A stretch of 64,000 nt of DNA, from NCBI GenBank assembly GCA_045604905.1, contig JAZUOX010000006.1, positions 772-64,771 on the forward strand, in the 5' to 3' direction. The notes beneath the pieces are model-generated. The model made no database searches and had not been told where the DNA came from. It saw only the letters and a list, made by a program, of their open reading frames with translations. Below are positions 1,234 through 38,821 of this stretch, in pieces. The stretch comes from Clostridia bacterium. GTDB taxonomy: Bacteria; Bacillota; Clostridia; UMGS1883. The stretch's first letter is position 1. Each line of letters starts with the position of its first letter. Both the position numbers and the translations under genes were made by a program.

Positions 1234-4052
1234 AAAGAAATGAAATAGTGATTCAGGGTGCAAGGGAAAATAACCTGAAAAATGTTGACCTGACAATCCC
1301 CAGGGATAAGTTTATTGTATTTACAGGTGTTTCTGGTTCGGGAAAAACATCTCTTGCTTTTGATACAATTTATGCGGAGGGGCAGAGAAGGTATGTAGAG
1401 TCTCTTTCTTCATATGCAAGGATGTTCCTCGGGCAGATGGAAAAGCCGGAGGTTGATTATATAGAAGGACTGAGCCCTGCTATAAGTATTGACCAGAAAA
1501 CAACAAATAAAAATCCCCGTTCAACTGTTGGTACAGTAACAGAGATATATGACTACCTGAGGCTGCTTTATGCAAGAGTGGGTGTTCCGCACTGTCCGAA
1601 ATGCGGAAAGGTAATTACGCAGCAGACTCTTGATCAGATAGTAGAGCAGATTATGTCACTTCCTGAGGGAAGACGCATCCAGGTGCTTGCACCTATGGTG
1701 AGAGGTAAAAAGGGCGAACATCAGAAAGTGTTTGAGAATGCTAAAAAAAGCGGTTATGTCCGTGTAAGAGTTGACGGTATTATCTATGATTTGTCAGAAG
1801 TGATTGATCTTGAAAAACAGAAGAAGCACTATATAGAAATTGTTGTTGACAGACTTGTTGTTAAGCCCGATATCAGAAAAAGACTTGCCGATTCAATAGA
1901 AATAACGCTCCACCTTTGTGAAGGTATTGTGATGATTCTAAACGGTGAGGAAGAAATGATTTTCAGTCAGAACTATGCCTGCGACGATTGTGGGATAAGT
2001 CTTGACGAGCTTTCTCCCAGAATGTTTTCTTTCAATAACCCTTTAGGGGCCTGCCCGAAATGCAGTGGTATAGGTCTTCTTAAAAGAGTAGACCCGTCAC
2101 TCGTGCTTGTAAGTGATGAGCTTTCCGTCATGGAGGGAGCGTTTCATGTAAGCGGATGGCGTGCACCTGATAAAGAGGACAGTAACGCTAATGCCATATT
2201 CCGTGCGCTGGCGAAAAAATACAATTTCAGTCTTAATGTGCCGGTAAAAAATCTTCCTGACAAAGCGATTGAAGTAATTCTTTTCGGTACAGGTGATGAA
2301 GAAATAGAAATTGAGTACAAAGGAAAACGGGGACTTTCTGTGTGGAAAGACAAGTTTGAAGGTATTGTAAACAATCTTCAACGCCGTTACGATGAAACTA
2401 CAAGCGAATGGGCAAAATGGGATATTGAAGGGCTGATGCGCGAAATTCCATGTGATGAATGTAAAGGGAAGAGGCTTCGTAAGGAAAGTCTTGCAGTAAC
2501 TGTTGATGGAAAGAATATTGATGAAGTGTGTGGACTTTCAGTATCAAAAGCGGACAAGTTTTTCCGCGATATAGAGCTTCCGCAGAAAGAGCAGATTATC
2601 GCTGAAGAAATCCTCAAGGAAATCCGCGCAAGAATAGGATTTCTTAACAATGTTGGTCTTGAGTATCTTACAATGTCACGCTCTGCAGGAACACTTTCAG
2701 GCGGTGAGGCACAACGTATCCGTCTTGCAACACAGATTGGCTCAGGTCTTGTGGGTGTTCTTTATATCCTTGACGAGCCGAGTATCGGCCTTCATCAGAG
2801 AGATAATAATAAGCTTATTGCTGCACTTAAGTCCCTTCGCGATCTGGGAAATACGCTTATTGTTGTTGAACACGACGAGGATACAATGCGTGAAGCTGAC
2901 TATATTGTTGATGTGGGCCCCGGTGCAGGTGTACACGGCGGTGAAATTATAGCCCAAGGTACCGTTGATGAAATTGTTAAGTGTAAAAAATCACTTACAG
3001 GAGACTACTTAAGCGGAAGAAAGAAAATAGAAGTTCCCGCAACAAGACGAAAAGGCAACGGAAAATCCATAAAAGTTCTTAAAGCAGCAGAAAACAATCT
3101 TAAGAATATAGATGTAGAAATTCCTCTGGGGAAATTTGTTGCTGTGACAGGTGTGTCGGGTTCAGGAAAAAGCTCTCTTGTAAATGAAGTTGTATATAAG
3201 CATCTTGCATATAAATTAAACCACAGCAAGGCGGTTCCCGGAAAACATAAAGGGATTGAAGGTATTGATAACCTTGACAAAGTAATAAATATCGATCAGT
3301 CTCCCATTGGAAGAACTCCACGCTCCAATCCGGCAACCTATACAGGTGTGTTCAACGACATCCGTGAGCTTTTTGCAATGACTCCCGAGGCAAAAACCAG
3401 GGGTTACAATGCAGGACGCTTCAGCTTTAATGTACGTGGAGGGCGGTGTGAAGCTTGCTCTGGTGACGGAATACTTAAGATTGAAATGCATTTCCTGCCG
3501 GATGTGTATGTTCCGTGTGAGGTTTGTAAAGGAAAGCGCTATAACCGTGAAACCCTTGATGTTCATTATAAGGGAAAGAATATTTTTGAAGTTCTTGATA
3601 TGACAATAGATGAAGCTGTTGACTTTTTTGAAGCTATTCCAAAAATAAAGAATAAGCTTCAGACTATCAAGGATGTAGGTCTTGGTTATATCAAGCTTGG
3701 ACAGTCATCTACAACTCTGTCAGGGGGCGAAGCCCAGAGAGTAAAGCTGGCAACAGAACTTTCAAAACGCTCTACTGGCAAGACTATTTACATTCTTGAC
3801 GAGCCGACAACAGGTCTTCACAGTGCCGATGTGCACAGGCTGATAGATGTTCTTAACCGTTTTGTTGACGAAGGTAATAGCGTTCTTGTAATTGAACATA
3901 ACCTCGATGTTATTAAAACGGCAGACCATATTATCGACCTGGGGCCGGAAGGCGGTGACGGCGGAGGAACTCTTGTTACTTGCGGAACGCCTGAAGAAAT
4001 TGCACAAAACCCGGATTCGTACACAGGTATGTTTTTGAAGAAAATGCTTTAA
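1230..4052 (+). CDS. uvrA: Excinuclease ABC subunit A (UvrA)
   Basis: 940 aa with two ABC ATPase modules ([14 protein letters not shown] and [13 protein letters not shown]; LSGGEAQR twice). Several Cys-pair zinc modules are present ([41 protein letters not shown]). Confidence 0.97.
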
Positions 4053-4064
4053 TAACAGTGATAA

Positions 4065-4108
4065 AACCTCCCTGCCTTAAATATACTTTAAGACAAGGAG
4101 GTTTTGTT
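4065..4108 (+). terminator. Imperfect hairpin plus TTTTGTT between uvrA and yabP; its 3' arm contains the yabP Shine-Dalgarno
   Basis: AACCTCCCTGCCTT (4065-4078) pairs with AAGACAAGGAGGTT (4090-4103) with two C.A mismatches and is followed by TTTGTT. AAGGAGG in the 3' arm lies 7 nt before the ATG at 4109. Confidence 0.4.
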
Positions 4109-4384
4109 ATGGCAGAAATGACAACAGGAAAAAGCGGAAATATTATACTTGAAAACCGTAGAAAGCTTACTGCAAGCGGAGTTAAGGATGTGGAAAGCTT
4201 TCTTCCCGAGAAAATTGTGCTCATTACTGAAGATGCTAACCTTACAGTTACCGGAAATGAAATGAGGGTAAAGAATCTTTCTACCCAGAACGGAGAAATT
4301 CTCATTGAGGGAGATATTGACGGATGTGTATATACAAAAGGCAGAGTGCAAAAAGAAAGCTTTCTTAAAAGGGTGCTTAAATAA
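4109..4384 (+). CDS. yabP: Sporulation protein YabP
   Basis: Collinear with B. subtilis YabP as recalled (...LTASGVKDVESF...LTVTGNEMRVKNLSTQNGEILIEGDIDGCVY...). The internal ATG at 4109 follows AAGGAGG; the listed 4058 GTG start lacks an RBS. Confidence 0.85.
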   Translation: MAEMTTGKSGNIILENRRKLTASGVKDVESFLPEKIVLITEDANLTVTGNEMRVKNLSTQNGEILIEGDIDGCVYTKGRVQKESFLKRVLK

Positions 4385-4869
4385 TGGAAGTTTCCTCAAA
4401 GCATCAGCTTATGGTATTTCTTCTTTGTATACTGTCGGGAATTTTTTGCGCGCTGTTTTTTGACCTTCAACGAAGCTTGCGCAGAATACATTCTGCAGGA
4501 AAAATAAGAACAACTGCAGAGGATATCCTCTTTGCGGTTGTGGTAACCTTTGTGTTAATTGGTCTCGGCTTTTATTTTAACCGTGGACAGATGAGGTATT
4601 ATCAAGTGGCGGGAGCTCTTAGCGGGGCTCTTTTCTATGTTGCTTTTCTAAGCCGTATCTCGATGAAAATCATAGAAGAAATCTGTAGAATCATAAAATA
4701 TTCAATCCGCCCTATTATGATTTTGATAAGGATTATTTCATCTCCGATACTATGGATTTACAGATTGATAAAGGCTCTTTTACTTAAAATAAAGAGGGCA
4801 AAAACCCGTATTTTGTGCTATGGAAAAAAGAAATTTTTAAAGCTTAAAAAAAGAATGAAAATGTTGTAA
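4384..4869 (+). CDS. yabQ: Spore cortex biosynthesis protein YabQ (membrane)
   Basis: TAATG overlap with yabP. Hydrophobic multi-helix protein with a basic C-terminal tail. Position directly after yabP matches the Bacillus/Clostridium yabP-yabQ-divIC order. Confidence 0.8.
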   Translation: MEVSSKHQLMVFLLCILSGIFCALFFDLQRSLRRIHSAGKIRTTAEDILFAVVVTFVLIGLGFYFNRGQMRYYQVAGALSGALFYVAFLSRISMKIIEEICRIIKYSIRPIMILIRIISSPILWIYRLIKALLLKIKRAKTRILCYGKKKFLKLKKRMKML

Positions 4870-4917
4870 AAAAAACTTTACAAATTAGTTGCTTTAAGTT
4901 ATACTGTATTGTGAGGG

Positions 4918-5235
4918 GTGAGGAGCTTGAAGCGAGTTGCAAAAAAGACCGTTGCTAAAAAATTTAAAAGAACACGCGCAAACTATATACGTCTTATAGT
5001 TGGTGTTTTGGTAATAGGCAGTTTCATCGGCACTCTTGTATCTCAGCAAATTCGTATTTCAAGTATCCGCCGCGAGACAGAGCAGTGCAAAAAACAGACT
5101 GCAGCGAAGAACGAGGAGTACGAAAAGCTCAGTAAAAAAGCGGAGTACAGTGCTTCTGACGACTTCTACGAAAAGAAGGCCCGTGACGAAGGATATGTTC
5201 GTTCTGACGAGACAGTTTTTGTTATTGGTAACTGA
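4918..5235 (+). CDS. divIC: Septum formation initiator family protein (DivIC/FtsB)
   Basis: Basic N-terminus, a single TM helix (LIVGVLVIGSFIGTLV), a coiled-coil region, then the ...YEKKARDEGYVRSDETVFV motif typical of FtsB/DivIC. Start codon is uncertain (GTG 4918 or TTG 4927). Confidence 0.8.
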   Translation: MRSLKRVAKKTVAKKFKRTRANYIRLIVGVLVIGSFIGTLVSQQIRISSIRRETEQCKKQTAAKNEEYEKLSKKAEYSASDDFYEKKARDEGYVRSDETVFVIGN

Positions 5236-5275
5236 CTGAATTCATTTTACACACTGAAAGGGGCAAAATACCTTT

Positions 5276-5692
5276 ATGGCACTCGAAGTAGGACAAATAG
5301 TTGAGGGAAAGGTTTCAGGAATAACAGGGTTTGGTGCGTTTATCGATCTTCCCGGAGGAGAGACGGGCCTTGTACATATTTCAGAGGTTGCAAGAAACTA
5401 TGTTAAGGATATTAATGAGCATCTTGCACTTAATCAGGAAGTTAAGGTAAAAGTTCTTTCTCTTGACGAAAAAGGTAAAATCAGCCTTTCTATTAAGAAA
5501 GCTCAGGAGCCGAAAAATACAAAGAGTGAACCTTTTAGTGGCAGACCTGCAGAAATTGACTGGCAGAGTGAGAACAGCCAGAAAGATATGTCTTTCGAAG
5601 ATATGATGGCGTCTTTCAAACAGTCAAGTGATGCCAGAATGCTGGATATAAAGCGCAACACAGAGTCGAAGCGCGGTAACAGAAGAAAGTGA
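5276..5692 (+). CDS. yabR: S1 domain RNA-binding protein (YabR-like)
   Basis: N-terminal S1 fold signature (VGQIVEGKVSGITGFGAFIDLPGGETGLVHISEVA...VKVKVLSLDEKGKISLSIK). Position after divIC matches B. subtilis. Confidence 0.85.
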   Translation: MALEVGQIVEGKVSGITGFGAFIDLPGGETGLVHISEVARNYVKDINEHLALNQEVKVKVLSLDEKGKISLSIKKAQEPKNTKSEPFSGRPAEIDWQSENSQKDMSFEDMMASFKQSSDARMLDIKRNTESKRGNRRK

Positions 5693-5700
5693 TTTTATAA

Positions 5701-5740
5701 CGGGATGTAAAGAAATCGGATTTCTTTACATCCCGTTTTT
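5701..5740 (+). terminator. Rho-independent terminator after yabR
   Basis: CGGGATGTAAAGAAA / TTTCTTTACATCCCG, a 15-bp perfect stem with a 5-nt loop, followed by TTTTT. Confidence 0.85.
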
Positions 5741-5823
5741 ATGGAATTCGTGTGGAATTGATGAGCATTAAACTATGCTTGCTAAAACTGATAGCGGATA
5801 AGAGAGTAAATTATGCTGTGTTA

Positions 5824-6216
5824 TTACCTCAAACTGTATTTTCCCAGCATTTCTACACTTTTCAGTTCGTTTTTCATTATGTCTTTCATTGAAAGTCCCA
5901 GTGCGTTGCAGAGTGCAGCTGTGTAAAACAGTGATTCTCCGATTTCCTTTTCTATTCTTTCCTTGCAGGAAACGCAGATGTTTCCGTTTATGCCGGAAAG
6001 TTCTCTGGGAGAAAGCGTTTGCATGCTGTCAATATCAAAAACAGCTTTCTCTGCGCCAATTTTCACACATCCGCAACCTGTTGCAGATTTTATTACACTA
6101 CGGCTTGTTTTTCCGCAACTGTCCTGAAATTTTGTGAGAATATCAAGGATATTATTGTTTCTTGCAATCAAAACAGAAACTTTATTCTGAAAATCGTCAG
6201 ATAAAGAACGGACCAT
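5824..6216 (-). CDS. Hypothetical small Cys-containing protein with a weak MazG-like C-terminal helix pair
   Basis: 130-aa ORF in an otherwise empty interval. Cys pairs CGC and CVSC. The C-terminal ...EKEIGESLFYTAALCNALGLSMKDIMKNELKSVEMLGKY resembles the E-x-GE / helix motif of all-alpha NTP pyrophosphohydrolases. Family assignment is weak. Confidence 0.55.
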   Translation of the reverse strand: MVRSLSDDFQNKVSVLIARNNNILDILTKFQDSCGKTSRSVIKSATGCGCVKIGAEKAVFDIDSMQTLSPRELSGINGNICVSCKERIEKEIGESLFYTAALCNALGLSMKDIMKNELKSVEMLGKYSLR

Positions 6217-6334
6217 ATAATTTCACCTCAATAAAATTATATAGTCCGCACAGCAGATAGTCAATGTAAGAGTTTGTAAGAAAATGTCAACCGAAACCAA
6301 CAAAACCGGAGATAACTAAAAAACAAGCTTTTGG

Positions 6335-7207
6335 TTATATTATGCGTCTTGAATAAGCGGTGGGAGATAGTCCCACAGCTTTTTTAAATGCTCGTGAAAA
6401 AATGTGGATTGAAGAATACCCCAACATATCAGAAATTTGGCTTACAGTGTAGTTCTTTTCTCTGAGAAGCTTTTTTGCTTCAGAAATTTTAAGCTCCATA
6501 TGGTACTCCATCGGGCTTTGTCCGGTGCTCTCACGGAAAATTTTGCAAAGCTGAGTTTTTCCTATAAGAAAATGCTCGCAAACTTCTTTGAGGGAAATGG
6601 GGGTGTAGATGCTGCTTTTAAGATAATCCGAAATAAGCTCGCTTAAAGAATTATTTGCTATATCACGGGATTTTTTGCTTAATTCAAGCTTTTCACTCAT
6701 ATCACTGCCACTTCGGATAAGGCGGATGATAAATTCCGTGAAATAGCAATCAAGAAGCTGCGACGCTCCAAAAACATCTTTTTTGAAGTGGAGATTTTCA
6801 TTGTTTTCGTAATTTGACGGAACTGTTCCCAGTGCGTTTTTTGCCTCTTCTATAAAAAGCGAAAGCAACATTTTTCCCGTTTTGTTAAGGTTAAATGTCT
6901 TCCCTCTGAGAAAACTGAGCATTTCTCCCTCAGCACTGAAGGATATAACAAGCATATTGTTAGCTACACGGTTGTCGGAAATATGGGCGTGTACTTCCAT
7001 AGGCTCGTGAAAAATCGCTTGCCCTTCCTCCAAAGTAAGACCGACTCCGTTGGTAATAGCGTTTATCCTTCCGCTATCCACATAAACCATTTCCCAGAAG
7101 TTATGCTTTTCAGGAGCGTGGGAGAAGTCTTTGCCGAATTCAAAGTAATATATGCTGTTAAACCCTTTTATTTCAATTTCTTTATGCACTTTTTGAGTGT
7201 CGAACAT
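6335..7207 (-). CDS. AraC family transcriptional regulator (N-terminal cupin sensor plus C-terminal HTH)
   Basis: The C-terminus carries the AraC double HTH (...LKEVCEHFLIGKTQLCKIFRESTGQSPMEYHMELKISEAKKLLREKNYTVSQISDMLGYSSIHIFSRAFKKAVGLSPTAY). The ATG at 7207 is preceded by AAGGAGG, whereas the listed 7252 start has no RBS. Divergent from the 7342 gene cluster. Confidence 0.85.
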   Translation of the reverse strand: MFDTQKVHKEIEIKGFNSIYYFEFGKDFSHAPEKHNFWEMVYVDSGRINAITNGVGLTLEEGQAIFHEPMEVHAHISDNRVANNMLVISFSAEGEMLSFLRGKTFNLNKTGKMLLSLFIEEAKNALGTVPSNYENNENLHFKKDVFGASQLLDCYFTEFIIRLIRSGSDMSEKLELSKKSRDIANNSLSELISDYLKSSIYTPISLKEVCEHFLIGKTQLCKIFRESTGQSPMEYHMELKISEAKKLLREKNYTVSQISDMLGYSSIHIFSRAFKKAVGLSPTAYSRRII

Positions 7208-8046: not shown

Positions 8047-8990
8047 AAAAAGTAGCTTGTGTTGGAATCTTGGTAGCAGACGTTATTGTTGAGCCTGTTA
8101 CAAAATTTCCCGAAAAAGGTATACTTGAAAAGGTTAATTCAATCACTATGCACAATGGCGGTAACGCTATGACGGCATCAATTAACCTCAGAAAAATCGG
8201 TGTGGAGTCTACAATGGTAGGTATGGTAGGAAACGATATGTTCGGAGAATTCCTTAAAGGAAGACTTAGGGATGCAGGCGTTGATGTATCGGGACTTAAA
8301 GTGTCAGATGAAGCTCAGACATCTGCATCAGTGCTTATGATTGACCCCGGTACCGGTGAGCGTTCATTTTTCCACTGTGTAGGTGCAAACGGTGTCCTTT
8401 CTGAAAGTGATATTAATTACGATGCGGTTGATAAATGCGATATGGTTTTTGTAACCGGTTCATTTATTATGGACACCTTTGACGGAGAGGAAACAATGAA
8501 ATTCCTTAAACGTTGTAAGGAAATGGGCAAGACCACATTCCTTGACGTTTGCTGGGATGCAAGCGGAAGATGGGGAGAGCTTCTTGATATGTCACTTCCT
8601 TACATAGATTTCTTTATGCCCAGTATTGATGAGGCAGTTTGTATCGCAAAGGAAGAAGAACCTGAAAGCATTGCAGACGTATTCCAGTCAAAGGGTGCAA
8701 AGAATGTAATCATCAAGCTTGGCTCAAAGGGTAGTTACCTTCGTAAAGATGGTGAGAGTAAGGGTACGGTTTATCCGCCCTTCTACATTGAAAATCCTGT
8801 TGATACAACAGGTGCTGGAGACAGCTTCTGTTCAGGCTTCCTTGCAGCGTATGCTATGGGAAAATCTCTTGAAGAGTGTATGGTGTTTGCCAATGCCACA
8901 GGTGCACATTGTGTAATGGCAACAGGTGCAACAACAGGCATAAAACCCTACGCAGATATAATGAAATTTATTGAAAATTATAATAAATAA
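8043..8990 (+). CDS. PfkB family carbohydrate kinase (ribokinase-like)
   Basis: N-terminal GILVADV...GGNA motif and C-terminal PfkB signature ([18 protein letters not shown]). ATGA overlap with the deacetylase gene. Confidence 0.85.
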
Positions 8991-9004
8991 AAAGGAGAAT
9001 TATT

Positions 9005-9943
9005 ATGGATTTTTTAAGTACAGTTGAAGGCAGCATGTGCGAAAGCTTTTTCCCCAAGGGTTGGGACCTCAAGAAAATTGACGAATGCTGTGAAAAGGGT
9101 GTAACCCGTGAAGATTTCTGGCATAAGGACTTTACTCCCGTTGAATGTGACAACATTTTTGAATTTGACACATTTATGGGTCACGAAATCGCTCTTCAGA
9201 TCAAGAACGCTCGCGAAAGAGGCGAAAAGCTTGCTATGATTCTTCCCGTAGGTCCTATGGGTATGTATAAGTGGGCAGTTTACTTTCTTAAGGAATGGAA
9301 TATAAAGTGTGACCACGTTTACACATTCAATATGGACGAATGGTCTGATGCTGAGGGTAACACACTTCCCAACACAGATCCTGCATCATTCGAATACAGC
9401 ATGAAGCAGGCTTTCTTTGATAAGCTTGGCGAGAACACAGTTCCTCCCGCACAGCGTAACTTTGCTTCAAAGGAAAATCTTCCCACATATCCTGAGAAGA
9501 TTGCTGCCCTTAAAGCAGAGGGTGCAAAGCTTGTTCTCGTATTCGGCATAGGTCGTGCTTGTCATATCGCATTCTGGGAACCCCACTTTGCAGATGAATT
9601 TGATACAGTTGAAGAATGGAAGAAGCAGTGCTACAGAATCGGTGCAAAGCTTAACCCTATGACTATCGAGCAGAACGCTATCACAAGCTTCAAGAGCCGT
9701 ACAACACTTGTTCCTTGCCGTGCTAACACAGTTGGACCCGGACTCTTCCTTCAGGCAGATACAATCATCGGCGGATGTGACGGTGCTCTCGGCAGAGGCA
9801 TGGGCTGGCAGGGTATGAGCTTCCTTATGACTCTTCATTACGGTCCTGATAAGAGCATTACATCATCATTCATTCCCACAATGCCCGGTAAGCTCTTCTA
9901 TCTTAAGGAGCTGGCTGGTCCTTTGACAGCAGAATGTAACTAA
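9005..9943 (+). CDS. Glucosamine-6-phosphate deaminase/isomerase (NagB/6-phosphogluconolactonase superfamily)-like protein, atypically long
   Basis: [15 protein letters not shown]...[11 protein letters not shown] resembles the NagB G-x-TP ... FN-x-DEY core. At 312 aa it is longer than a canonical NagB. AAGGAG RBS. Confidence 0.7.
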
Positions 9944-9945
9944 TT

Positions 9946-10187
9946 AAATTCGAAATTCGGAGTTCGAAATTCGAAATGAAAGTTTTAACTTTCTAAAAAG
10001 TAATCAGGGGCTATAAACTTGTTTTATAGCCCCTGAAATTTAAAGGGATAGTAAAAAAGGAATTTTCAATTGTGCGGTAATCAAAATACAAAGTGATAAT
10101 GAAGAGATGATAAATTGAAACAAAATTTTGCTTCAGCAAAATTCACCTACATTTCGCACTTCGCATTTCGAATTTCGCATTCAAAAG
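9946..10187. repeat. Heptamer-arm inverted-repeat element, copy A (left arm 9946-9982, right arm 10126-10182)
   Basis: The left arm is tandem heptamers AAATTCG AAATTCG GAGTTCG AAATTCG AAATG. The right arm is TTTTGCTTCAGCAAAA hairpin + TTCACCTACATTTCGCACTTCGCATTTCGAATTTCGCATT. CGAAATTCGAAATG and CATTTCGAATTTCG are perfect reverse complements. 9962-9979 is identical 18/18 to 49801-49818. Confidence 0.8.
10005..10040 (+). terminator. Hairpin terminator after the NagB-like gene, inside repeat copy A
   Basis: CAGGGGCTATAAA-CTTG-TTTTATAGCCCCTG followed by a weak T tract (AAATTT). Confidence 0.55.
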
Positions 10188-10229
10188 CTACTTTTTTAAC
10201 ATCCCGTTATTTAAAAAGGATTTGATACT

Positions 10230-11060
10230 ATGTACAAAATCGGCTCATTTTTTTATTCGGTGGAAAGAGCTCTTGAACTCGGTGAAATAAAAGATTATGA
10301 CGAAGGACTTTTCCGCTTCAGAAATGCCGGAATAACAGGTATTCAGATTGAAGCTGAAATAGGTAACCGTATTAACTTAACCCAGCTTATTAATGCCATG
10401 AAAAATAACGGTATCGAATTTCATACAATTCATACTGCTCATCCTTGCAACTACAAGGATGAGGAAAGCTATCAAAAATCATTGGAACACTACAAAAATG
10501 CGATGAAATTTGCAGAGGAAATGAAATCTCCAATACTTATGATGGTTCCGCAGAAACCGTCAGGCTATATTGACTATGACTATATTAAGTTCCGCAGCGT
10601 TGCCCGCCGCTTAGTAAGTGATATGTGTGAATTCAGCAGAACAACTGCCGTAACTCCTACTATTGAGGACTATTCATTTAAAACTGCAGCATACGGACTT
10701 TTCAGTGATATAAAATATCTTCTTGACCATAACCCTGAACTTATGTTTACCTACGACAGCGGAAACTTTGTTCTTGCAGGTAATGACGAGCTTGAGGGGG
10801 CATATCTTTTTGCAGACCGTACAGTTGGTGTGCATTTTAAAGACCTTGTCTATGATGAAGAACACATCGAGTTTGTACGCGATGGTGTTTGTTATAACTC
10901 TGTTGCAATCGGTGACGGTATGCTTCGCAATAAAGAGGCGTTCAATGTGCTTAAAGAAGGAAAGTTTAAAGAAGGCAGCCTGATTATTGAAACAGGCTAT
11001 ACATACAACTGCTTTAAAAATACACTTAAATCAGCTGATTATATAAAAACTATTCTTTGA
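10230..11060 (+). CDS. Sugar phosphate isomerase/epimerase (xylose isomerase-like TIM barrel) family protein
   Basis: 276 aa whose overall pattern is that of AP endonuclease 2 / xylose isomerase-like TIM barrels (...GITGIQIEAE..., ...EFHTIHTAH..., ...AMKFAEEMKSPILMMVP..., ...GVHFKD...). Assigned by recognition only. Confidence 0.65.
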   Translation: MYKIGSFFYSVERALELGEIKDYDEGLFRFRNAGITGIQIEAEIGNRINLTQLINAMKNNGIEFHTIHTAHPCNYKDEESYQKSLEHYKNAMKFAEEMKSPILMMVPQKPSGYIDYDYIKFRSVARRLVSDMCEFSRTTAVTPTIEDYSFKTAAYGLFSDIKYLLDHNPELMFTYDSGNFVLAGNDELEGAYLFADRTVGVHFKDLVYDEEHIEFVRDGVCYNSVAIGDGMLRNKEAFNVLKEGKFKEGSLIIETGYTYNCFKNTLKSADYIKTIL

Positions 11061-11073
11061 AAGGAAAAGCGTT

Positions 11074-12057
11074 ATGACACAGAAAGTTTACGATGAAAAA
11101 TTCGAGAAATGGCTTATTGAGTATCTTGACGAAAAGCTTCCGGAAAAAATTTACGATGCCCATTACCATATAAACCGCAAATATGCGGCGGCGAAAGGGT
11201 ATGAGGGGAGAGCTTTTGATCAATATGCCGATTTTATGGCAAAATATGTACCCCGTCCACTTGCGGGCGGCCTTATTATGGCACAGCCGAACAGCAAACA
11301 CACTTCCGAAGATATTGCAGAAGAGAACTCATATATAATTGAGCTTTCAAAAAAACACAATCTTGACGTGGGAATCCTTGTTCCGCCATATTACAACCGT
11401 GAACAGACAGAAAAAATCATTGATGAAAATCCTACTGTAAAGATGCTTAAGCCCTACCTTACATATACTACCGGAGAAGATGCCCTTGAATCAGATATCT
11501 CAGAATTTGCTCCTGAATGGATGTGGCAGCTTGCCCACGACAGGAAAATGCCTATAATGATACATCTTTCTCACTATCAGAATATGCTGTGGGATGAGGC
11601 TAATCTCCGTGAAATACGGTTTTTCTGTAAAAAGTACCCCGATGCAAAACTTATTCTTGCACATTGCGCTATGGGACATAATGTGCCGAAACTAAGGCTC
11701 GCACTTGATGAAATAAAAGACCTTAAAAACATCTGGTTTGATTTTTCCGGCTCTACGGAAACAATGTCAATTTACTACTGTATAAGGACATTTGGCGTAG
11801 ATAAAATGATGTTCGGAGGAGACCATAATCACGGTGAAACACTGGGAAGAATTTGTACATTCGGAACAAATTTTATCGGACTTCATCCGGGATTTGTTGA
11901 TATGAACTATGTGACGGGAAGTCCATATAAATACCAGCCCCTAAACAATATGCAGGAAAGTCTTATGTGCTTTTTCCAGGCAGCGGAAATTCTTGATTTG
12001 AGTAAAGAAGATATCGAAAAAATCTTTTTTTACAATGCAAAAACAATTTTTAAATAA
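11074..12057 (+). CDS. Amidohydrolase_2-type metal-dependent hydrolase
   Basis: N-terminal H-x-H (YDAHYHI), an internal ILAHCAMGH, and C-terminal MMFGGDHNHG (Asp in the last strand), as in the PF04909-type family. Confidence 0.75.
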   Translation: MTQKVYDEKFEKWLIEYLDEKLPEKIYDAHYHINRKYAAAKGYEGRAFDQYADFMAKYVPRPLAGGLIMAQPNSKHTSEDIAEENSYIIELSKKHNLDVGILVPPYYNREQTEKIIDENPTVKMLKPYLTYTTGEDALESDISEFAPEWMWQLAHDRKMPIMIHLSHYQNMLWDEANLREIRFFCKKYPDAKLILAHCAMGHNVPKLRLALDEIKDLKNIWFDFSGSTETMSIYYCIRTFGVDKMMFGGDHNHGETLGRICTFGTNFIGLHPGFVDMNYVTGSPYKYQPLNNMQESLMCFFQAAEILDLSKEDIEKIFFYNAKTIFK

Positions 12058-16411: not shown

Positions 16412-17035
16412 ATGAAAATACAAAAAGTAGTAGTTGGCGAATTACAGGTAAATTGTTACCTGCTCACAGAAGGAAGCGAAGCAATCGCAATAGACCCGGG
16501 CGATGAGTGTTCAAAGATTATGCTTGCATCAGAAAATGAGGGTTGCACGATTACAAAAATCCTTCTTACCCACGGGCATTTTGACCACATCGGAGCGGTG
16601 GATGAGCTTGTGGAAAAGACCGGAGCAAAGGTTTATGTGCATCAGGAAGATGAAATAATGCTTTCTGATGATACAAAAAACCTCAGCGATATATCAAACG
16701 CAAAAATCAGACATTGCAAGGCAGACGTTAATTTTGATAATGGTGATGTAATAGATTTTTGCGGCAATAAGCTTAAAATTCATCACACTCCCGGTCATAG
16801 TCCAGGAGGTGTATGCATTGAAGCAGGAGAGTATCTTTTCAGCGGAGATTTACTTTTCCGGGAATCTATCGGACGATTTGACAGGGGAAATCTCAGAGCG
16901 GAGCTTAACTCTCTTAAATATCTTATGGATAATTTCAATGATGATGTTATTGTATATCCGGGACACGGACCCGAGACAACGATAGGCGAGGAAAGAGCAT
17001 ATAACCCCTATATAGTAAACCATGTAATGAGATGA
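16412..17035 (+). CDS. MBL-fold metallo-hydrolase
   Basis: THGHFDH metal motif, a later HTPGHSPG, and a C-terminal PGHG. Confidence 0.85.
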   Translation: MKIQKVVVGELQVNCYLLTEGSEAIAIDPGDECSKIMLASENEGCTITKILLTHGHFDHIGAVDELVEKTGAKVYVHQEDEIMLSDDTKNLSDISNAKIRHCKADVNFDNGDVIDFCGNKLKIHHTPGHSPGGVCIEAGEYLFSGDLLFRESIGRFDRGNLRAELNSLKYLMDNFNDDVIVYPGHGPETTIGEERAYNPYIVNHVMR

Positions 17036-20110: not shown

Positions 20111-20143
20111 AAAGGGAATCAGCTAAAAAGCTGATTCCCAACA
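20111..20143. terminator. Shared hairpin between the convergent udk-like and hydE-mnmA genes
   Basis: GGGAATCAGC-TAAAAA-GCTGATTCCC. A good T tract exists on the minus-strand reading (CCCTTTTTATTTT), and the plus-strand downstream sequence is A-rich. Confidence 0.7.
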
Positions 20144-20195: not shown

Positions 20196-22304
20196 TTATG
20201 CGGTGGGTGCCGTTTTTATTATAGTGCCTCCACCAATTACCGTATCGTCACTATATAAAACTACTGCCTGACCTTTGGTTATTGCACGTTGCGGCTCGTC
20301 AAAGGTAACGCGGATAGTATTTTCGTCAAGTTGTACTACCGTTGCATCTGCAGGGGTGTGACGGTAGCGGATTTTCGCTTTAACACGCATAGGCGTATAT
20401 AAATCGTCAACTGCGGTAAGGTTAATGTCGTTTGCCATAAGTTCACTCGAGAACAAATCCTCGTGAGGGCAAAGGATAACTGCATTTTTATCTGTATCAA
20501 TATCGCATACATAAAGGGGGGCAGGTAATGCAAGTCCAAGTCCTTTTCGCTGACCTACGGTGTAGGAAATAATTCCCTTATGGGTTCCGAGGACATTTCC
20601 GTCTTTGTCAATAAAATTACCTTCGGGATAGTCTTTCTCTGTATAACGGCGGATAAAGTCCGTATAATCTTCGTCTTTAACAAAGCATATATCCTGACTG
20701 TCCTTTTTGTGAGCATTTACAAGATTATGCTTTTCTGCAATAGCGCGTGCTTCCTCCTTTGTCATATTGCCAAGGGGGAAGAGAGTTCTTGCAAGCTGCT
20801 CCTTTGTCAATGAATAAAGAACATAGCTCTGGTCCTTTGAGGGGTCAAGGGCTTTTTTTAATACGTATCTGTCATTTTCCTTTTCAATACGTGCATAGTG
20901 TCCAGTTGCGATAAAGTCGCATCCAAGAGCCTCCGCCTCTTTAAATAATCTTTCAAACTTAAGGTGCCTGTTACACTCTATACACGGATTAGGTGTTGCA
21001 CCGTTTTCATAGGCAGAAACAAATTTGTCCACTACCTTTTCACAGAAATCGGGGGAGAAATCGTATACAAAATGCTCCATAGAAAGTGCATCGCACACCT
21101 TTTTTGCATCTTCTATATCCTCAAGACTGCAGCAGGCGTGTTCTTCGTCAATGGGTATTTGCGCTCCGAGAAGCTTCATTGTAGCGCCAACGCAGTCATA
21201 CCCTTTTTCTTTCATCAGATGTGCCGCAACCGAGGAATCAACACCGCCACTCATAGCCACAAGGCATTTGTTACCTGCAGGTTTTTTTACATTTCCAATT
21301 GCAGTCACTACCTTATAACCTGCATTTTTTACACGCTTTTCAAGGAGTGCACGGCTCTGTGCCGCTTCCTCCCCTGTGGCAATTTTATTGTCGTAAATAC
21401 TGTAAAGCTTTCTGAATCTCTGGGGCGAAAGGTTGGGCATAACTACATTTGCCCCTGCCTGAAGTCCTCTTTCTCTGCCGTCCTCAGCGAGTGTACCCAG
21501 TGCCGTTGTCGCGGGTAGCAGTGCATGGGGGAACATTAAACGAAGTACGGAAATAAGCCGTATCGTTAATTCCACACTGCCGTTTTCAAAATCCTTGAAG
21601 GGCGTTTCCTTATGATTAACGTACGGTCCTATTCCAACCATATCGGGCTGAAGTTCTTTAAGGAAGAACAGGTCTGAAATAATGTTGTCAATAGTCTGAT
21701 AAGGCGAGCCGACCATAAATCCGCTACCTACCTGATAACCGATTTTCTTCAGGTCATAAAGACAACGTTTACGGTTTTCAAGGCTCATTTCTGCAGGGTG
21801 GAGCTTATTGTAGTGTTCTTCTTCTGCAGTTTCGTGCCTTAACAGAAAGCGGTTTGCACCTGCATTGAAATAGGCAAGATAACTGTCGTAAGACCTTTCG
21901 CCAACAGATATAGTGATAGCGCAATCGGGAAATTCCCCCCTGATGGTTCTTATAATATCGCAAAATCTTTCATCAGTAAAATAGGGGTCTTCGCCTCCCT
22001 GAAGCACAAAGGTGCGGAAACCCAAGGTGTAACCCTCACGGCAACACTCCATAATTTCATCCTTTGAAAGACGGTAACGTTCCGCCTTTTTGTTGTCGCA
22101 CCTTATACCGCAGTAATAGCAGTTGTTTTTGCAGAAATTTGAAAACTCAATAAGACCGCGGATATAAACATCGGTGCCGTAGATTTCCCTGCGTACCGAA
22201 TCTGCAGTCTTAAAAAGCTCTTCGTCATATTTATCTGTTGAAAGTAATTTTTTGAACTCATCTCTTGTGAGAATATGTTCTTCTTTTAACTTTTTTACCA
22301 ACAT
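20196..22304 (-). CDS. Fusion protein: [FeFe]-hydrogenase H-cluster radical SAM maturase HydE (N-terminal) plus tRNA 2-thiouridine(34) synthase MnmA (C-terminal)
   Basis: The N-terminal ~345 aa is collinear with T. maritima HydE as recalled (IEFSNFCKNNCYYCGIR, VLQGGEDPY, RFLLRHETA, GSGFMVGSPYQT, PATTALGT, GANVVMPN). The C-terminal ~355 aa is a complete MnmA (PP-loop VAMSGGVDSSVAA, NPCIECNRHLKF, KDSQDICFV). The junction AIGNVKKPAGNKCLVAMSGG (nt 21241-21302) has no stop and no internal start. The ATG at 22304 is preceded by AAAGGTG; the listed GTG is at 22313. Confidence 0.85.
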   Translation of the reverse strand: MLVKKLKEEHILTRDEFKKLLSTDKYDEELFKTADSVRREIYGTDVYIRGLIEFSNFCKNNCYYCGIRCDNKKAERYRLSKDEIMECCREGYTLGFRTFVLQGGEDPYFTDERFCDIIRTIRGEFPDCAITISVGERSYDSYLAYFNAGANRFLLRHETAEEEHYNKLHPAEMSLENRKRCLYDLKKIGYQVGSGFMVGSPYQTIDNIISDLFFLKELQPDMVGIGPYVNHKETPFKDFENGSVELTIRLISVLRLMFPHALLPATTALGTLAEDGRERGLQAGANVVMPNLSPQRFRKLYSIYDNKIATGEEAAQSRALLEKRVKNAGYKVVTAIGNVKKPAGNKCLVAMSGGVDSSVAAHLMKEKGYDCVGATMKLLGAQIPIDEEHACCSLEDIEDAKKVCDALSMEHFVYDFSPDFCEKVVDKFVSAYENGATPNPCIECNRHLKFERLFKEAEALGCDFIATGHYARIEKENDRYVLKKALDPSKDQSYVLYSLTKEQLARTLFPLGNMTKEEARAIAEKHNLVNAHKKDSQDICFVKDEDYTDFIRRYTEKDYPEGNFIDKDGNVLGTHKGIISYTVGQRKGLGLALPAPLYVCDIDTDKNAVILCPHEDLFSSELMANDINLTAVDDLYTPMRVKAKIRYRHTPADATVVQLDENTIRVTFDEPQRAITKGQAVVLYSDDTVIGGGTIIKTAPTA

Positions 22305-22354
22305 AAAGTTCACCTTTTTAAATAGTCTGCACCAAGCGGTACAGACTATTTGTA

Positions 22355-23446
22355 TTATAACTTATTCTTACAATAATCAATGATAGAAATTTTCGTATCA
22401 TCTTCCGGCATATACGGAAGGAATTTCTCAATATATTTCTTGAGAAGTTCTCTGTCAACCTTTTTTGGCTTGTCGCCTACAAGATTTACAAAGTTATCGC
22501 ACTCTATTGCACGCACCTTTTCGTCAGAAAGCCCCATACCTTTAATTGTGCAGGTACTGTCATAATAGCTGAATGCAGTATATTCATCATCTGTTGCAAA
22601 GAAGCGGTATACATCACTGCAAAGGGGCTTTGTAAGTGTTTCAAAATCCGAATAGTTGTTTGCATCCGTACCGAAAATGATACGGTTATAGTATTTCTCA
22701 AAAAATGCTTTAAATTCATCATATTTTCCTACCGATGCCTGGAAAAGTGCAGGACCGGGCGCAAGGTCAATTGATGTGTTGGAGTATTTATCCAGTACCT
22801 TTGCAAGTTCCTGGAGGCAATGCCCCATAAAGAAACCATGGGGAAGAGTAATTCTTATACCGGGGAAACGGTCAAGAACATTATAAACCTCACCGTAAAT
22901 TTCTTCTATTGATGCATAAGTTCCGTCACCGTAGAACCAACCCTTTTCCTTGAAAATCGGGGGAACTTTGTCCTCATCCCAGAAATCGTGGGGATCGGCA
23001 ACGTGGGAATTCATGGGGATATCGTTATCCTCAATATATTTAAAGAACGCATCATAGCCTTTTTTATCAATGCCGTATGCAAGCTTTTTATGAAGTGACG
23101 GCTTTGACTCAAGGAGCTTTATTCCGTCAAATCCCATTGCCATAAATTCTTCAGCCTGTGCTTTGAAGTCAAACTTTTCGGCAAGCTCATCATTAATAGG
23201 TGCTTCGGGATAGAAAAGACCACCGTAAGAATATGCAGTTTCGTCCTCAAGCTTTAAAATAGCACCCACAATATTCTGTGCCATTGAATATACACCGCGG
23301 GATTCCCCTGCCATAGGGAGTGACAGAGTATTTACTGCATAAAGACCGCACTTCTCTTTATAGTTTTTAAATGAATCTATAAATGAAACACCGTCTGTAT
23401 TCCACTGACAAATATGGCAGTGGGAGTCAATAATTTTTCTTGCCAT
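22355..23446 (-). CDS. Amidohydrolase_2-like metal-dependent hydrolase (paralogue 2)
   Basis: N-terminal IIDSHCHICQW (H-x-H) and C-terminal IIFGTDANNY. Collinear paralogue of the 23446..24543 gene, with roughly half the positions identical by eye. Confidence 0.7.
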   Translation of the reverse strand: MARKIIDSHCHICQWNTDGVSFIDSFKNYKEKCGLYAVNTLSLPMAGESRGVYSMAQNIVGAILKLEDETAYSYGGLFYPEAPINDELAEKFDFKAQAEEFMAMGFDGIKLLESKPSLHKKLAYGIDKKGYDAFFKYIEDNDIPMNSHVADPHDFWDEDKVPPIFKEKGWFYGDGTYASIEEIYGEVYNVLDRFPGIRITLPHGFFMGHCLQELAKVLDKYSNTSIDLAPGPALFQASVGKYDEFKAFFEKYYNRIIFGTDANNYSDFETLTKPLCSDVYRFFATDDEYTAFSYYDSTCTIKGMGLSDEKVRAIECDNFVNLVGDKPKKVDRELLKKYIEKFLPYMPEDDTKISIIDYCKNKL

Positions 23447-24543
23447 CAGAAATTCTCCTTATAATACTTAATAATCTCGTCCTTTGTTTCACCGTCTACA
23501 AGATTGGGGATAAATCCTTCAATGTATTTACCCAGAGCCTTGCGGTCAATTTCCTTCGGAGCTTTGTGCCCTACAATATCAAGATAATTTCCCGCAAGAA
23601 CTGCATTGAGCTTCTCTTCATCAAGTCCCATACCGTGAAGAGTACATTCGCTGTCGTAATAGTCAAATGCACTGTAAACATCGTCTGTTGCAATGAATCG
23701 GTATACATCATTGAAGAGGCTCTCTGTAAGGGGGAAGGGAGAGTAATTTTTTGCATCTGTTGCAAAAAGAATTCTCTTATAGTATTTATTAAAAAATGCT
23801 TTCCAGTTTTCGTAGTCCTTTGACATTGCCTCTAAAAATACAGGACCGGGAGCAAGGTCTGTGTAAACATTTTCGTAAGTTTCAAAAAGCTGTGATAAAC
23901 CTTCCGGACTATCGCAAAGGAAAAATCCGTGGGGAAGTGTTACCTTAAGCTTCGGATGACGTTCGAGCACGTTATAAACCTCGGCATAAATTTCTTCCTT
24001 AGTGGCAAAAGTGCCGTCACCGTAAAACCAGCCGTTCTGTCTTGCAAGAGGCGGTGCGGTTTCAGGGTCCCAGAAATTATGGGGGTCATTAACGTGCATA
24101 AGAAGGGGAATTCCGTTTTCTTCAAGATAAGCGAAATACTCCTCATACCCTTCTCTGTCAACACCATATTTTAGCTTTTTGTTTATAGTAGGCTTTGACT
24201 CAAACATTTTCATACCGTCAAAACCGATTTCCATAAGGGTTTCAGCCTGCTTTTTAAAGTTATATTCTGCAGTTTTCTCAGGAATAATAGGTGCATCGGG
24301 ATAGAAAAGTCCGCCGTATACATATGTAGAATTTGTCTTGTCCTCAAGCTTTGAAATAGCACCAAGGATATTCTGTGCAGGGCAAAAATGTGTAGCCCAC
24401 CCCTTTATTCCCGGAACGCAGAGAAGCAAGAATCCTGTTACACCGCATTTTTCACGATACTCCTGCTGAAATTCAAGGAATGTCTGCCCGTGGGAATACC
24501 ACTGACAGTTATGATAATGTGCATCTATAATCTGTCTTTTCAT
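23446..24543 (-). CDS. Amidohydrolase_2-like metal-dependent hydrolase (paralogue 1)
   Basis: IIDAHYHNCQW and ILFATDAKNY. Its start overlaps the galK stop (ATGA at 24540-24543), and its stop overlaps the next start by 1 nt. Confidence 0.7.
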   Translation of the reverse strand: MKRQIIDAHYHNCQWYSHGQTFLEFQQEYREKCGVTGFLLLCVPGIKGWATHFCPAQNILGAISKLEDKTNSTYVYGGLFYPDAPIIPEKTAEYNFKKQAETLMEIGFDGMKMFESKPTINKKLKYGVDREGYEEYFAYLEENGIPLLMHVNDPHNFWDPETAPPLARQNGWFYGDGTFATKEEIYAEVYNVLERHPKLKVTLPHGFFLCDSPEGLSQLFETYENVYTDLAPGPVFLEAMSKDYENWKAFFNKYYKRILFATDAKNYSPFPLTESLFNDVYRFIATDDVYSAFDYYDSECTLHGMGLDEEKLNAVLAGNYLDIVGHKAPKEIDRKALGKYIEGFIPNLVDGETKDEIIKYYKENF

Positions 24544-26290: not shown

Positions 26291-27181
26291 TCAGTACATG
26301 TCTTCGTCATCAGGGTTTATAATTTCACCTTCTTCGTTTACAATAAGTGACGGTTCGTCAAATTGTGATGGGAACGCCTTTGAAACAATAAAGTTAATCA
26401 CAACAAGTGCGACATACACAATAAGTATTTCGAACAGCATACTTACTACAAATACTGAGAAAAATCCGTAAAGAGATGTAAGTGGTTCAACACCACCTTT
26501 TGAGTAATGAAGAAGATAGTCGTATATGGGATAATCATACATAATTTTGTAGAGAATCGCCATAAGAAGAACATTTACAAATGTTGATATAGAAAATCTT
26601 GTCAGTGACACTTTTGCCAAAAGGTCGGTGTAAAAACCGCGGAAACGTGTTCCGAACCACATGGCTTTGTGTCTGTAAAGAAGCCATCCGTGCAAAAAGC
26701 CCGCAACTGTTGCACAGATAAAGTAGATTGCATAAAAACGCTGAAGTTTGACAATCATTCTGACGATTGTACAAAGAGCAACGCCTATTGCGCAGGTAAC
26801 AGGACCGAAAAAGTAGCCTAAAATAGCGTTTATAGTTATGTCAAGGTTTGTTGTTATCGCCTGCTCTACATTGATATTATAGTACTTAAAATCAACAGAG
26901 CCTGCCCAACCAAGAAGGATATACAGCGCAATAAGGAATATAATAACGATAATCGTAACAGGGCTGCGCATATGACTCAGCGAACTCATCATCATAACCT
27001 TGCAGTTTTCCCAGTAGCGCTGAAGAGAGTCAATAATATAGTCTTTTCTTGTTCTGAATCCCTGGAAATCTTCCTCACCATCACCGTAAGAATTTTCCTG
27101 ATATGGTGAAAATTTAGCTCCGAGAGTTTCGTTTTCTGTTTCGTAATTTTGCGGTTGAGAATTGTCTTTTTCTTTTTTCAT
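26291..27181 (-). CDS. Multi-pass membrane protein with acidic cytoplasmic termini, function unknown (weakly ECF S-component-like)
   Basis: ~60-aa polar/acidic N-terminus, about 5-6 hydrophobic helices (a GYFFGPVTCAIGVAL-type segment), and an acidic C-terminal tail (NPDDEDMY). Confidence 0.6.
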   Translation of the reverse strand: MKKEKDNSQPQNYETENETLGAKFSPYQENSYGDGEEDFQGFRTRKDYIIDSLQRYWENCKVMMMSSLSHMRSPVTIIVIIFLIALYILLGWAGSVDFKYYNINVEQAITTNLDITINAILGYFFGPVTCAIGVALCTIVRMIVKLQRFYAIYFICATVAGFLHGWLLYRHKAMWFGTRFRGFYTDLLAKVSLTRFSISTFVNVLLMAILYKIMYDYPIYDYLLHYSKGGVEPLTSLYGFFSVFVVSMLFEILIVYVALVVINFIVSKAFPSQFDEPSLIVNEEGEIINPDDEDMY

Positions 27182-38770: not shown

Positions 38771-38799
38771 TTGCATTATACTATAAAATGTCCTAAAAT
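38771..38799 (+). promoter_or_regulatory. Candidate promoter of the GH cluster
   Basis: TTGCAT (38771-38776), 17-nt spacer, TAAAAT (38794-38799). Confidence 0.4.
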
Positions 38800-38821
38800 T
38801 CAAGTAGGGAGTGTGATAAAT

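Follow-up and report, generated by a model that had tools for sequence, protein, structure and literature searches.

An in-frame fusion of the hydrogenase maturase HydE to the tRNA thiolase MnmA, and the hydE-mnmA gene pairing around it

Two-enzyme chains that begin with the radical S-adenosylmethionine (SAM) hydrogenase maturase HydE are known from green algae, where HydE is fused to HydF (Chlamydomonas HydEF). Here we analyze a chain of similar layout in which the N-terminal HydE module is joined not to another established H-cluster maturase but to MnmA, a tRNA thiolase for which we know of no role in hydrogenase maturation. It is encoded by one gene, hydE::mnmA, in a 64,000-nucleotide stretch of the genome of a gut Clostridia bacterium (GTDB lineage Bacteria; Bacillota; Clostridia; UMGS1883; GenBank assembly GCA_045604905.1, contig JAZUOX010000006.1, positions 772 to 64,771), which we refer to throughout as the window. 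The fusion combines two well-known families in a new domain architecture and does not amount to a novel kind of system. It is the most extreme case of a widespread pairing of hydE with mnmA that often lies in cysteine/Fe-S operons. An earlier note on this DNA, made from its letters alone, did not recognise the architecture as a described one, and neither a HydE-MnmA fusion nor hydE-mnmA linkage is described in the literature we searched. The conserved linkage of hydE to mnmA, and to genes for PP-loop thiolases, across five bacterial groups is apparently unreported.

Stand-alone HydE is represented by Thermotoga maritima TM1269 (PDB 3cix, 5few and 7o1t). The HydE substrate is complex-B, (Cys)Fe(CO)2(CN), which carries a cysteine, and a structural review has raised the question of whether the description 'radical SAM cysteine desulfurase' fits HydE; isotope labelling shows that the cysteine sulfur of complex-B ends up in the H-cluster itself, and HydE variants without an auxiliary cluster are a recognised subset (PMC10114646). 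The C-type MnmA enzymes, among them that of Thermus thermophilus, bear a CC-CxxC-C signature, depend on an Fe-S cluster and are typical of Clostridium; they take sulfur from cysteine desulfurases, and IscS or SufS together with cysteine supports their activity in vitro (Shigi et al. 2020, PMC7025502). In Clostridium perfringens, mnmA (trmU) belongs to an Rrf2-iscS-iscU-trmU operon (cpe1786-1783) that is induced under cysteine limitation (PMC2940859).

The HydE-MnmA protein

The hydE::mnmA gene is a single uninterrupted open reading frame (ORF) on the minus strand, running from 22304 to 20196, with 702 codons and a predicted product of 79.3 kDa. One frame of about 700 codons at 20196-22304, holding HydE end to end and then a complete MnmA, had been proposed from the letters; these coordinates and contents hold, and every motif quoted at the time is present at its expected position. 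The principal features, including the linker that takes the place of a ribosome-binding site (RBS), are as follows.

20196..22304, minus strand: complete hydE::mnmA ORF, with ATG at 22304 and TAA stop at 20198-20196
21291..22304, minus strand: HydE domain, residues 1-338, a radical SAM TIM barrel that matches TIGR03956 over its full length
22110..22133, minus strand: CKNNCYYC, the C58-x3-C62-x2-C65 motif of the radical SAM cluster, with no variation among the 8 fused proteins
21270..21290, minus strand: linker VKKPAGN, residues 339-345, with an A7 run, where unfused relatives have stop, RBS and ATG
20199..21269, minus strand: MnmA domain, residues 346-702, comprising a PP-loop HUP domain, a PRC barrel and a C-terminal beta-barrel
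21234..21251, minus strand: PP-loop SGGVDS, residues 352-357, ATP-binding/adenylation site, invariant in the fused set
21126..21137, minus strand: ACCS with C391-C392, which supplies the 'CC' of the C-type MnmA signature (PMC7025502)
20970..20990, minus strand: NPCIECN, residues 439-445, in which C441 and C444 correspond to E. coli D99 and C102; two predicted [4Fe-4S] ligands
20682..20702, minus strand: DSQDICF, residues 535-541, with C540, a predicted third ligand of the cluster, at the position of E. coli C199 and T. thermophilus C200

Against NCBIfam, the HydE half scores 556.7 bits to the HydE equivalog TIGR03956 (cutoff 254.6), with residues 2-338 aligned to profile positions 1-339 of 340; the runner-up among radical SAM families is PylB, at 180 bits, which is under its own cutoff. 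Pfam likewise places a Radical_SAM domain here. Identity to T. maritima HydE is about 50%, and the score to structures such as 5few and 3cix is 300 bits. The half resembles TM1269 in its full-length match, in the CX3CX2C motif, in the SAM-binding motifs, among them the GGE-type LQGGEDP at residues 101-107 that is invariant across the fused set, and in the substrate-pocket methionines, M222 and M289 standing for T. maritima M224 and M291. Further HydE motifs are found at residues 154-160 (LLRHETA), 264-271 (PATTALGT) and 284-291 (GANVVMPN). It differs from TM1269 in lacking the C-terminal auxiliary-cluster cysteines and in having a C-terminus that runs straight into MnmA.

The MnmA half is equally complete, scoring 443.3 bits to NF001138 (cutoff 284; residues 347-695 aligned to profile positions 2-345 of 345) and 377.2 bits, full length, to TIGR00420 (cutoff 236.95). 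All three MnmA Pfam domains (PF03054, PF20259 and PF20258) are found, and the score to E. coli MnmA (2der) is 266 bits. The C-x-x-C plus distal cysteine, read in the earlier note as the pattern of Fe-S-type enzymes, is borne out: this half carries CC-CxxC-C (C391-C392, C441-x-x-C444, C540) instead of C-DxxC-C, with C441 aligned to E. coli D99. Judged by these residues it is a C-type, predicted [4Fe-4S]-dependent MnmA. With the T. thermophilus enzyme it shares the signature, the PP-loop and the three-domain architecture (PMC7025502); unlike that enzyme it has no initiator methionine or translation signals of its own, its N-terminal beta-strand is tethered to HydE, and its Fe-S binding is predicted.

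At the junction (residues 337-354, GNVKK-PAGN-KCLVAMSGG) there is no stop, no RBS and no in-frame start ahead of M351. The absence of such signals had been claimed from the letters and stands, with the coordinates of the segment shifted by 2 nt, to 21243-21302 from 21241-21302. Aligned with its fused orthologues, the protein shows two conserved halves and a linker that alone is variable, ranging from 1 to 31 residues: L001 and P0005 have a single residue, and P0002 has a 24-residue insert. The linkers of L001, P0002, P0006 and L007 all differ and all are in frame, and the fused gene of L002 has no homopolymer at the junction. Both alternative frames there would leave the MnmA half with neither start codon nor RBS. 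Both halves are under purifying selection, with dN/dS of 0.05-0.10 for HydE and about 0.08 for MnmA, values for which dS is saturated. Because orthologues come from independent assemblies, because the L002 junction is free of homopolymers and because a start-less MnmA half is under purifying selection, an assembly artefact is excluded and the in-frame fusion is confirmed as real.

We modelled the protein with AlphaFold2 from an alignment of the 8 fused sequences; a deeper set was left out, as MAFFT put MnmA-only sequences on the wrong half (15-19% identity). The model has a mean pLDDT of 67.6 and a pTM of 0.51, too weak to define an interface, and pLDDT falls below 50 in the linker and cluster loops, with residues 337-343 in the linker region among them.

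Rarity and origin of the fusion

A search of 5.8 billion proteins returned 7 clusters that cover 99% of the query, with identities of 96, 89, 89, 86, 77, 74 and 63%; every other match corresponded to one half. The exact protein is on record from an NCBI contig (P0124). Clustered at 90%, it groups with sequences from NCBI, ENA and Logan assemblies, 12 members in all, of which 10 are 698-722 residues long, and a protein name is absent from every source record for these members. No fused protein occurred among the 150 best matches in 1.84 billion 50%-identity representatives, and an independent metagenome sample contained 15 hydE-mnmA pairs, all of them unfused. The architecture is rare.

To locate hydE and mnmA in relatives, we scanned species-representative genomes and then used tblastn with each half. 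The closest unfused relatives have stop, RBS and ATG within 5-15 nt between hydE and mnmA, or overlapping genes. In L010 the junction reads GNVKR-TGA-TATAG-ATG-MTKCLIAMSGG, with the RBS AGGTGA overlapping the stop, and in L012 the two genes overlap, with mnmA preceded by the RBS AGGAGA. At several metagenome loci hydE and mnmA share a frame with one stop between them. The fused genes carry their short in-frame linkers, which differ in length and sequence, at exactly this spot, and the fusion originated from tightly packed adjacent hydE and mnmA genes. The loci L004 and L005 suggested another route, deletion of nifS-nifU(-nadA) from between hydE and mnmA; with the genes already abutting in L010 and L012, however, fusion needs no more than losing the stop, the RBS and the start, and on these grounds we discarded the deletion as proximate mechanism.

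Neighbor-joining trees were built separately for the two halves, and they are in agreement. The main fused clade, the unfused L010 included, has 93% support in the HydE tree and 100% in the MnmA tree, and L010 is sister to the fused P0006 with 99% and 97% support, respectively. The fused L007/P0008 is joined to the main clade with support of 1% (HydE) and 12% (MnmA). The nesting of L010 within the fused clade, together with the placement of L007 elsewhere, points to at least two fusion or fission events. Joining the two genes is easily done; as an event the fusion is rare and recent.

Two further loci deserve mention. L011, from Candidatus Endomicrobiellum devescovinae, a termite-gut flagellate endosymbiont, has hydE and mnmA in the same frame with a single stop between them (85-2247); the pair is retained in a reduced genome. 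L167 has an apparent hydE-mnmA-hydE arrangement (4026-6474), with the second HydE match 1337 nt beyond the first; this arrangement could stem from duplication or from chimeric assembly.

Neighbors and other fusion partners of hydE

Unfused hydE-mnmA pairs are common, and the fusion is accordingly less isolated than the earlier note held. The order hydE-mnmA, as separate genes, occurs in metagenome-assembled genomes of Clostridia (L010, L012, L026, L039 and L046), in Phascolarctobacterium (L061 and L069), in Spirochaetia (L038) and in Endomicrobiellum (L011). The reverse order, mnmA-hydE, is found in Defluviitaleaceae (L020), Treponema (L029), the cultured strain DFI.6.37 (L056), Dysosmobacter segnis (L071) and Eubacterium (L072), and in the Lachnospiraceae L054 and L067 nadA lies between the two genes (hydE-nadA-mnmA). 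In all, the linkage spans Clostridia, Negativicutes, Spirochaetota, Elusimicrobiota and Synergistota, in both gene orders.

Our first genome scan ranked loci on both halves and so over-represents mnmA-linked ones; because it favored two-half matches, we repeated the count with a HydE-only alignment on metagenome contigs. Among 80 loci chosen in this way, and with a direct neighbor defined as a same-strand gene within 400 nt, hydE adjoins hydG at 17 and mnmA at 15, the latter representing about 7 distinct lineages once near-duplicates are removed. The remaining direct neighbors are hydF (6 of 80), nifS (4), thiF/tcdA-like genes, nadA and cysE (2 each), and nifU, larE-like genes, cysK and ttcA (1 each). 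Among 78 related loci, HydF lies within 4 kb of hydE at 9. In a HydE tree of 166 context-labelled loci, the mnmA-linked sequences are interleaved with hydG/hydF-linked and unlinked ones, and a separate mnmA-linked paralogue, which we had considered, is not supported; scattered as they are, the mnmA-linked HydEs are therefore ordinary HydE orthologues.

Several pairs lie in cysteine and Fe-S operons. Gene orders include nifS-nifU-hydE-mnmA-thiF-rrf2 in L095, rrf2-cysK-nifS-hydE-mnmA in L069 and its Phascolarctobacterium group, hydE-nifS-nifU-nadA in L004 and cysK-metY-rrf2-mnmA-hydE-cysE in L154. NCBIfam models verified the neighbors as NifS (TIGR03402), NifU (TIGR03419), OAH/OAS sulfhydrylase, CysE, PatB, TtcA, HydF and an IscR/CymR-like Rrf2 regulator; a TtcA gene adjoins hydE in L072 and L144. 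NadA, BioB, TtcA and LarE-like proteins, further frequent neighbors that are likewise Fe-S enzymes with an open-site cluster, would fit an operon of supply machinery plus client enzymes. Loci such as L095 and L069 are of the same type as the C. perfringens Rrf2-iscS(nifS)-iscU(nifU)-trmU(mnmA) operon (PMC2940859), with hydE as an extra member not reported there; unlike that operon's mnmA, the pair of the window lineage has left the operon, fused, and sits in a housekeeping region between relA/recJ and galK. A ThiF/TcdA-like E1 adenylyltransferase also recurs directly downstream of hydE, at 9 of 78 genome loci and 5 of 80 metagenome loci (L090, L099, L020, L095 and others); its best model is TcdA, at 145.7 bits against a cutoff of 304.

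HydE had been described in the earlier note as normally standing alone or, in green algae, fused to HydF, a picture that proved incomplete. HydE-HydG fusions are present in P0038 (894 residues, 282 member sequences), P0080 (849) and P0118 (813), each matching both equivalogs full length, and such proteins seem fairly common. Like algal HydEF, these share with the window protein an N-terminal HydE module in a two-enzyme chain. In Synergistales (P0020 and P0028-P0030), HydE is joined at its C terminus to a LarE-type PP-loop ATP-dependent sulfur transferase (TIGR00268, 330.7 bits, full length) with CxxC...C. In L089 this fusion (10001-11863) has a separate mnmA (8893-9960) 40 nt upstream. The PP-loop family there is TIGR00268, of about 260 residues and without tRNA-binding barrels, and the fusion is an independent event in another phylum. 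An unfused hydE/larE-like pair is present in L102, and the two genes lie near each other in L051. Pfam alone indicates two more combinations: HydE with a C-terminal methyltransferase domain in P0017 (616 residues, Turicibacter) and HydE with a metallo-beta-lactamase (MBL)-fold domain in P0031 (666 residues). The window has an MBL-fold gene near the fusion (16412-17035), as a separate gene.

The expression signals around hydE::mnmA, all within the window, are listed here.

22310..22317, minus strand: RBS AAAGGTGA, 5 nt upstream of the ATG at 22304, read from the sequence
22320..22351, strand not assigned: hairpin with 14-nt arms, preceding the RBS and following the upstream amidohydrolase gene
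22430..22458, minus strand: promoter-like site TTGACA-17-TATATT, an 11/12 match to consensus only, within the 3' end of the upstream gene
20114..20139, minus strand: intrinsic terminator, an 11-bp stem followed by TTTTTATTTT, about 57 nt past the stop and between convergent genes

A mechanical ORF list had started the gene at a GTG at 22313. We rejected that start because the GTG falls within the RBS AAAGGTGA, which makes the ATG at 22304 the true one. The hairpin recurs in L002 (about 9955-9990) with compensatory base changes and could terminate the upstream amidohydrolase gene or act as a 5' untranslated region element. It is shared by the window and L002 only, and a comparison across the relatives turned up no operator conserved upstream of the fused gene.

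The fusion is flanked by a recJ-relA-MBL-radical SAM-PRK block on one side and by amidohydrolase genes and galK on the other, and the synteny from the recJ-relA block to galK is common to the window, L001 and L002. Between galK and the fusion, the window has two tandem Amidohydro_2 paralogues of 363 and 365 residues (22355-23446 and 23446-24543, minus strand); the pair is present in L002 and missing from L001, where a 73-residue galK fragment alone precedes the fusion, and is a lineage-specific insertion or deletion. Five sizeable ORFs of the window (296-561 residues; 38771-40456, 54811-55827, 9005-9943, 45869-46816 and 26291-27181) have no Pfam match at E <1e-5.

Readings of the fusion

The reading we favor, at a probability of roughly 70%, is that hydE::mnmA encodes two complete, catalytically competent enzymes that act independently and were fused from coupled neighbors with a shared cysteine/Fe-S supply context. 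The HydE half would act on (Cys)Fe(CO)2(CN), which HydG produces, and convert it towards the [2Fe] subcluster, and the MnmA half, [4Fe-4S]-dependent, would adenylate U34 of tRNA-Glu/Gln/Lys and swap its O2 for sulfur. Both would thus be three-cysteine [4Fe-4S] enzymes that handle cysteine-derived sulfur, and the likely reason for their pairing would be a common reliance on cysteine-derived sulfur and Fe-S clusters supplied by NifS/NifU. We propose that hydE and mnmA were recruited to a common cysteine/Fe-S-responsive transcription unit, the pair typically being part of, or derived from, a cysteine-responsive Rrf2-nifS-nifU-mnmA operon with cysteine-biosynthesis neighbors; that the adjacent genes then became translationally coupled; and that in a few Oscillospiraceae-like lineages the intervening stop, RBS and start were replaced by a short in-frame linker. 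A fusion of translationally coupled neighbors would be the simplest reading of these sequences, and it does not imply catalytic cooperation between the domains. Most probably the fusion merely fixes 1:1 co-expression of domains that work on their own. Cysteine or Fe-S status may co-regulate hydE and mnmA, and the hedged suggestion in the earlier note of a shared sulfur or Fe-S supply, or of a regulatory link, is backed by the relatives' operons of Rrf2-nifS-nifU-cysK type.

Three observations weigh against this account. No nifS, nifU, cys or Rrf2 gene is present in the 64 kb of the window. Many hydE-mnmA pairs, moreover, stand alone under their own promoter, as in L010 and L012, each of which has TTGACA-17-TATAAA ahead of hydE; since pairs persist without the operon, a shared operon is not the whole reason for the pairing. 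Finally, the partners of HydE are unusually specific, all of them PP-loop sulfur-insertion enzymes with three-cysteine sites (MnmA, LarE-like and TtcA), and this specificity could point beyond generic co-regulation.

The alternative that survives best is direct coupling, in which HydE and [4Fe-4S]-dependent PP-loop sulfur insertases interact as a complex or pass a sulfur or Fe-S(H) species between them, and the fusion channels an intermediate. For example, the open Fe site in the cluster of MnmA might receive sulfide derived from HydE, or the formation of the HydE product might include a step that the PP-loop domain assists. Partner specificity and the persistence of the pair away from nifS and nifU leave room for this idea: HydE has been fused independently to two PP-loop sulfur transferases, MnmA and the TIGR00268 LarE type; mnmA, hydE and a larE-like domain are contiguous in L089; ttcA stands beside hydE in two loci; mnmA adjoins hydE about as often as does the true partner hydG (15 versus 17); other HydE fusions, to HydG and to algal HydF, join genuine pathway partners; and the pair is kept without nifS or nifU at many loci, the window included. 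The HydE product and the sulfur donor of Fe-S-type thiolases, furthermore, remain open questions. We nonetheless regard direct coupling as unlikely, because no known step of H-cluster assembly requires an ATP pyrophosphatase, because C-type MnmA is active in vitro with ordinary desulfurases, IscS or SufS, plus cysteine (PMC7025502), and because about 80% of HydE loci have no mnmA nearby. The isotope labelling that places the complex-B cysteine sulfur in the H-cluster (PMC10114646) also argues against it, as do the occurrence of both gene orders and of rare, recent fusions, unlike what is expected of an obligate complex, and the lack of a confident interface in the AlphaFold2 model, itself a weak one. 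The same doubt attaches to its more specific form, that cleavage of the cysteine C-S bond by HydE supplies, or couples to, sulfide for PP-loop thiolases and so constitutes a desulfurase-independent sulfur route in anaerobes.

Considerably less probable is that the HydE-like half is no hydrogenase maturase here and is a diverged radical SAM enzyme of tRNA or sulfur metabolism. In its favor, the 64-kb window, as had been noted from its letters, has no hydA, hydF or hydG; nor does the window contain a second mnmA. The neighbors of this HydE group are mostly sulfur or tRNA-modification genes (MnmA, TtcA, ThiF/TcdA-like) rather than hydG or hydF, and the T. maritima auxiliary-cluster cysteines are missing. 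Set against this are a full-length TIGR03956 match at more than twice the cutoff, with PylB below its own; the identity of about 50% to T. maritima HydE, substrate-pocket methionines included; the interleaving of mnmA-linked with hydG/hydF-linked HydEs; the nearby HydF at 9 of the 78 related loci; the recognised status of HydEs that lack the auxiliary cluster (PMC10114646); and the scattering of hydrogenase genes that is usual in Clostridia.

The last alternative, a miscounted A7 homopolymer that merged two separate genes, draws on the GTAAAAAAACC at the junction and on the separate hydE and mnmA of the sister lineage L010, and it is effectively refuted by the 12-member cluster of independent assemblies, the homopolymer-free L002 junction, the varied in-frame linkers and the purifying selection on an MnmA half that other frames would leave startless.

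For annotation, the fusion presents a protein of about 700 residues that is unnamed in its sources and for which automated naming may record one of two activities; for biochemistry, it is a natural single-polypeptide construct for the study of HydE and MnmA. The linkage is a useful lead for researchers of hydrogenase maturation and of tRNA thiolation alike. Many gut, rumen and termite-gut anaerobes of several phyla have hydE beside mnmA about as often as beside hydG, and at a minimum this would tie H-cluster maturation to a cysteine/Fe-S supply regulon, which fits the cysteine-derived substrate of HydE. Should the coupling prove direct, it would bear on the final product of HydE and on the sulfur source of Fe-S-type tRNA thiolases in anaerobes, and if a desulfurase-independent route does exist, its Rosetta stones would be the fusions of HydE to MnmA and to the LarE-like domain.

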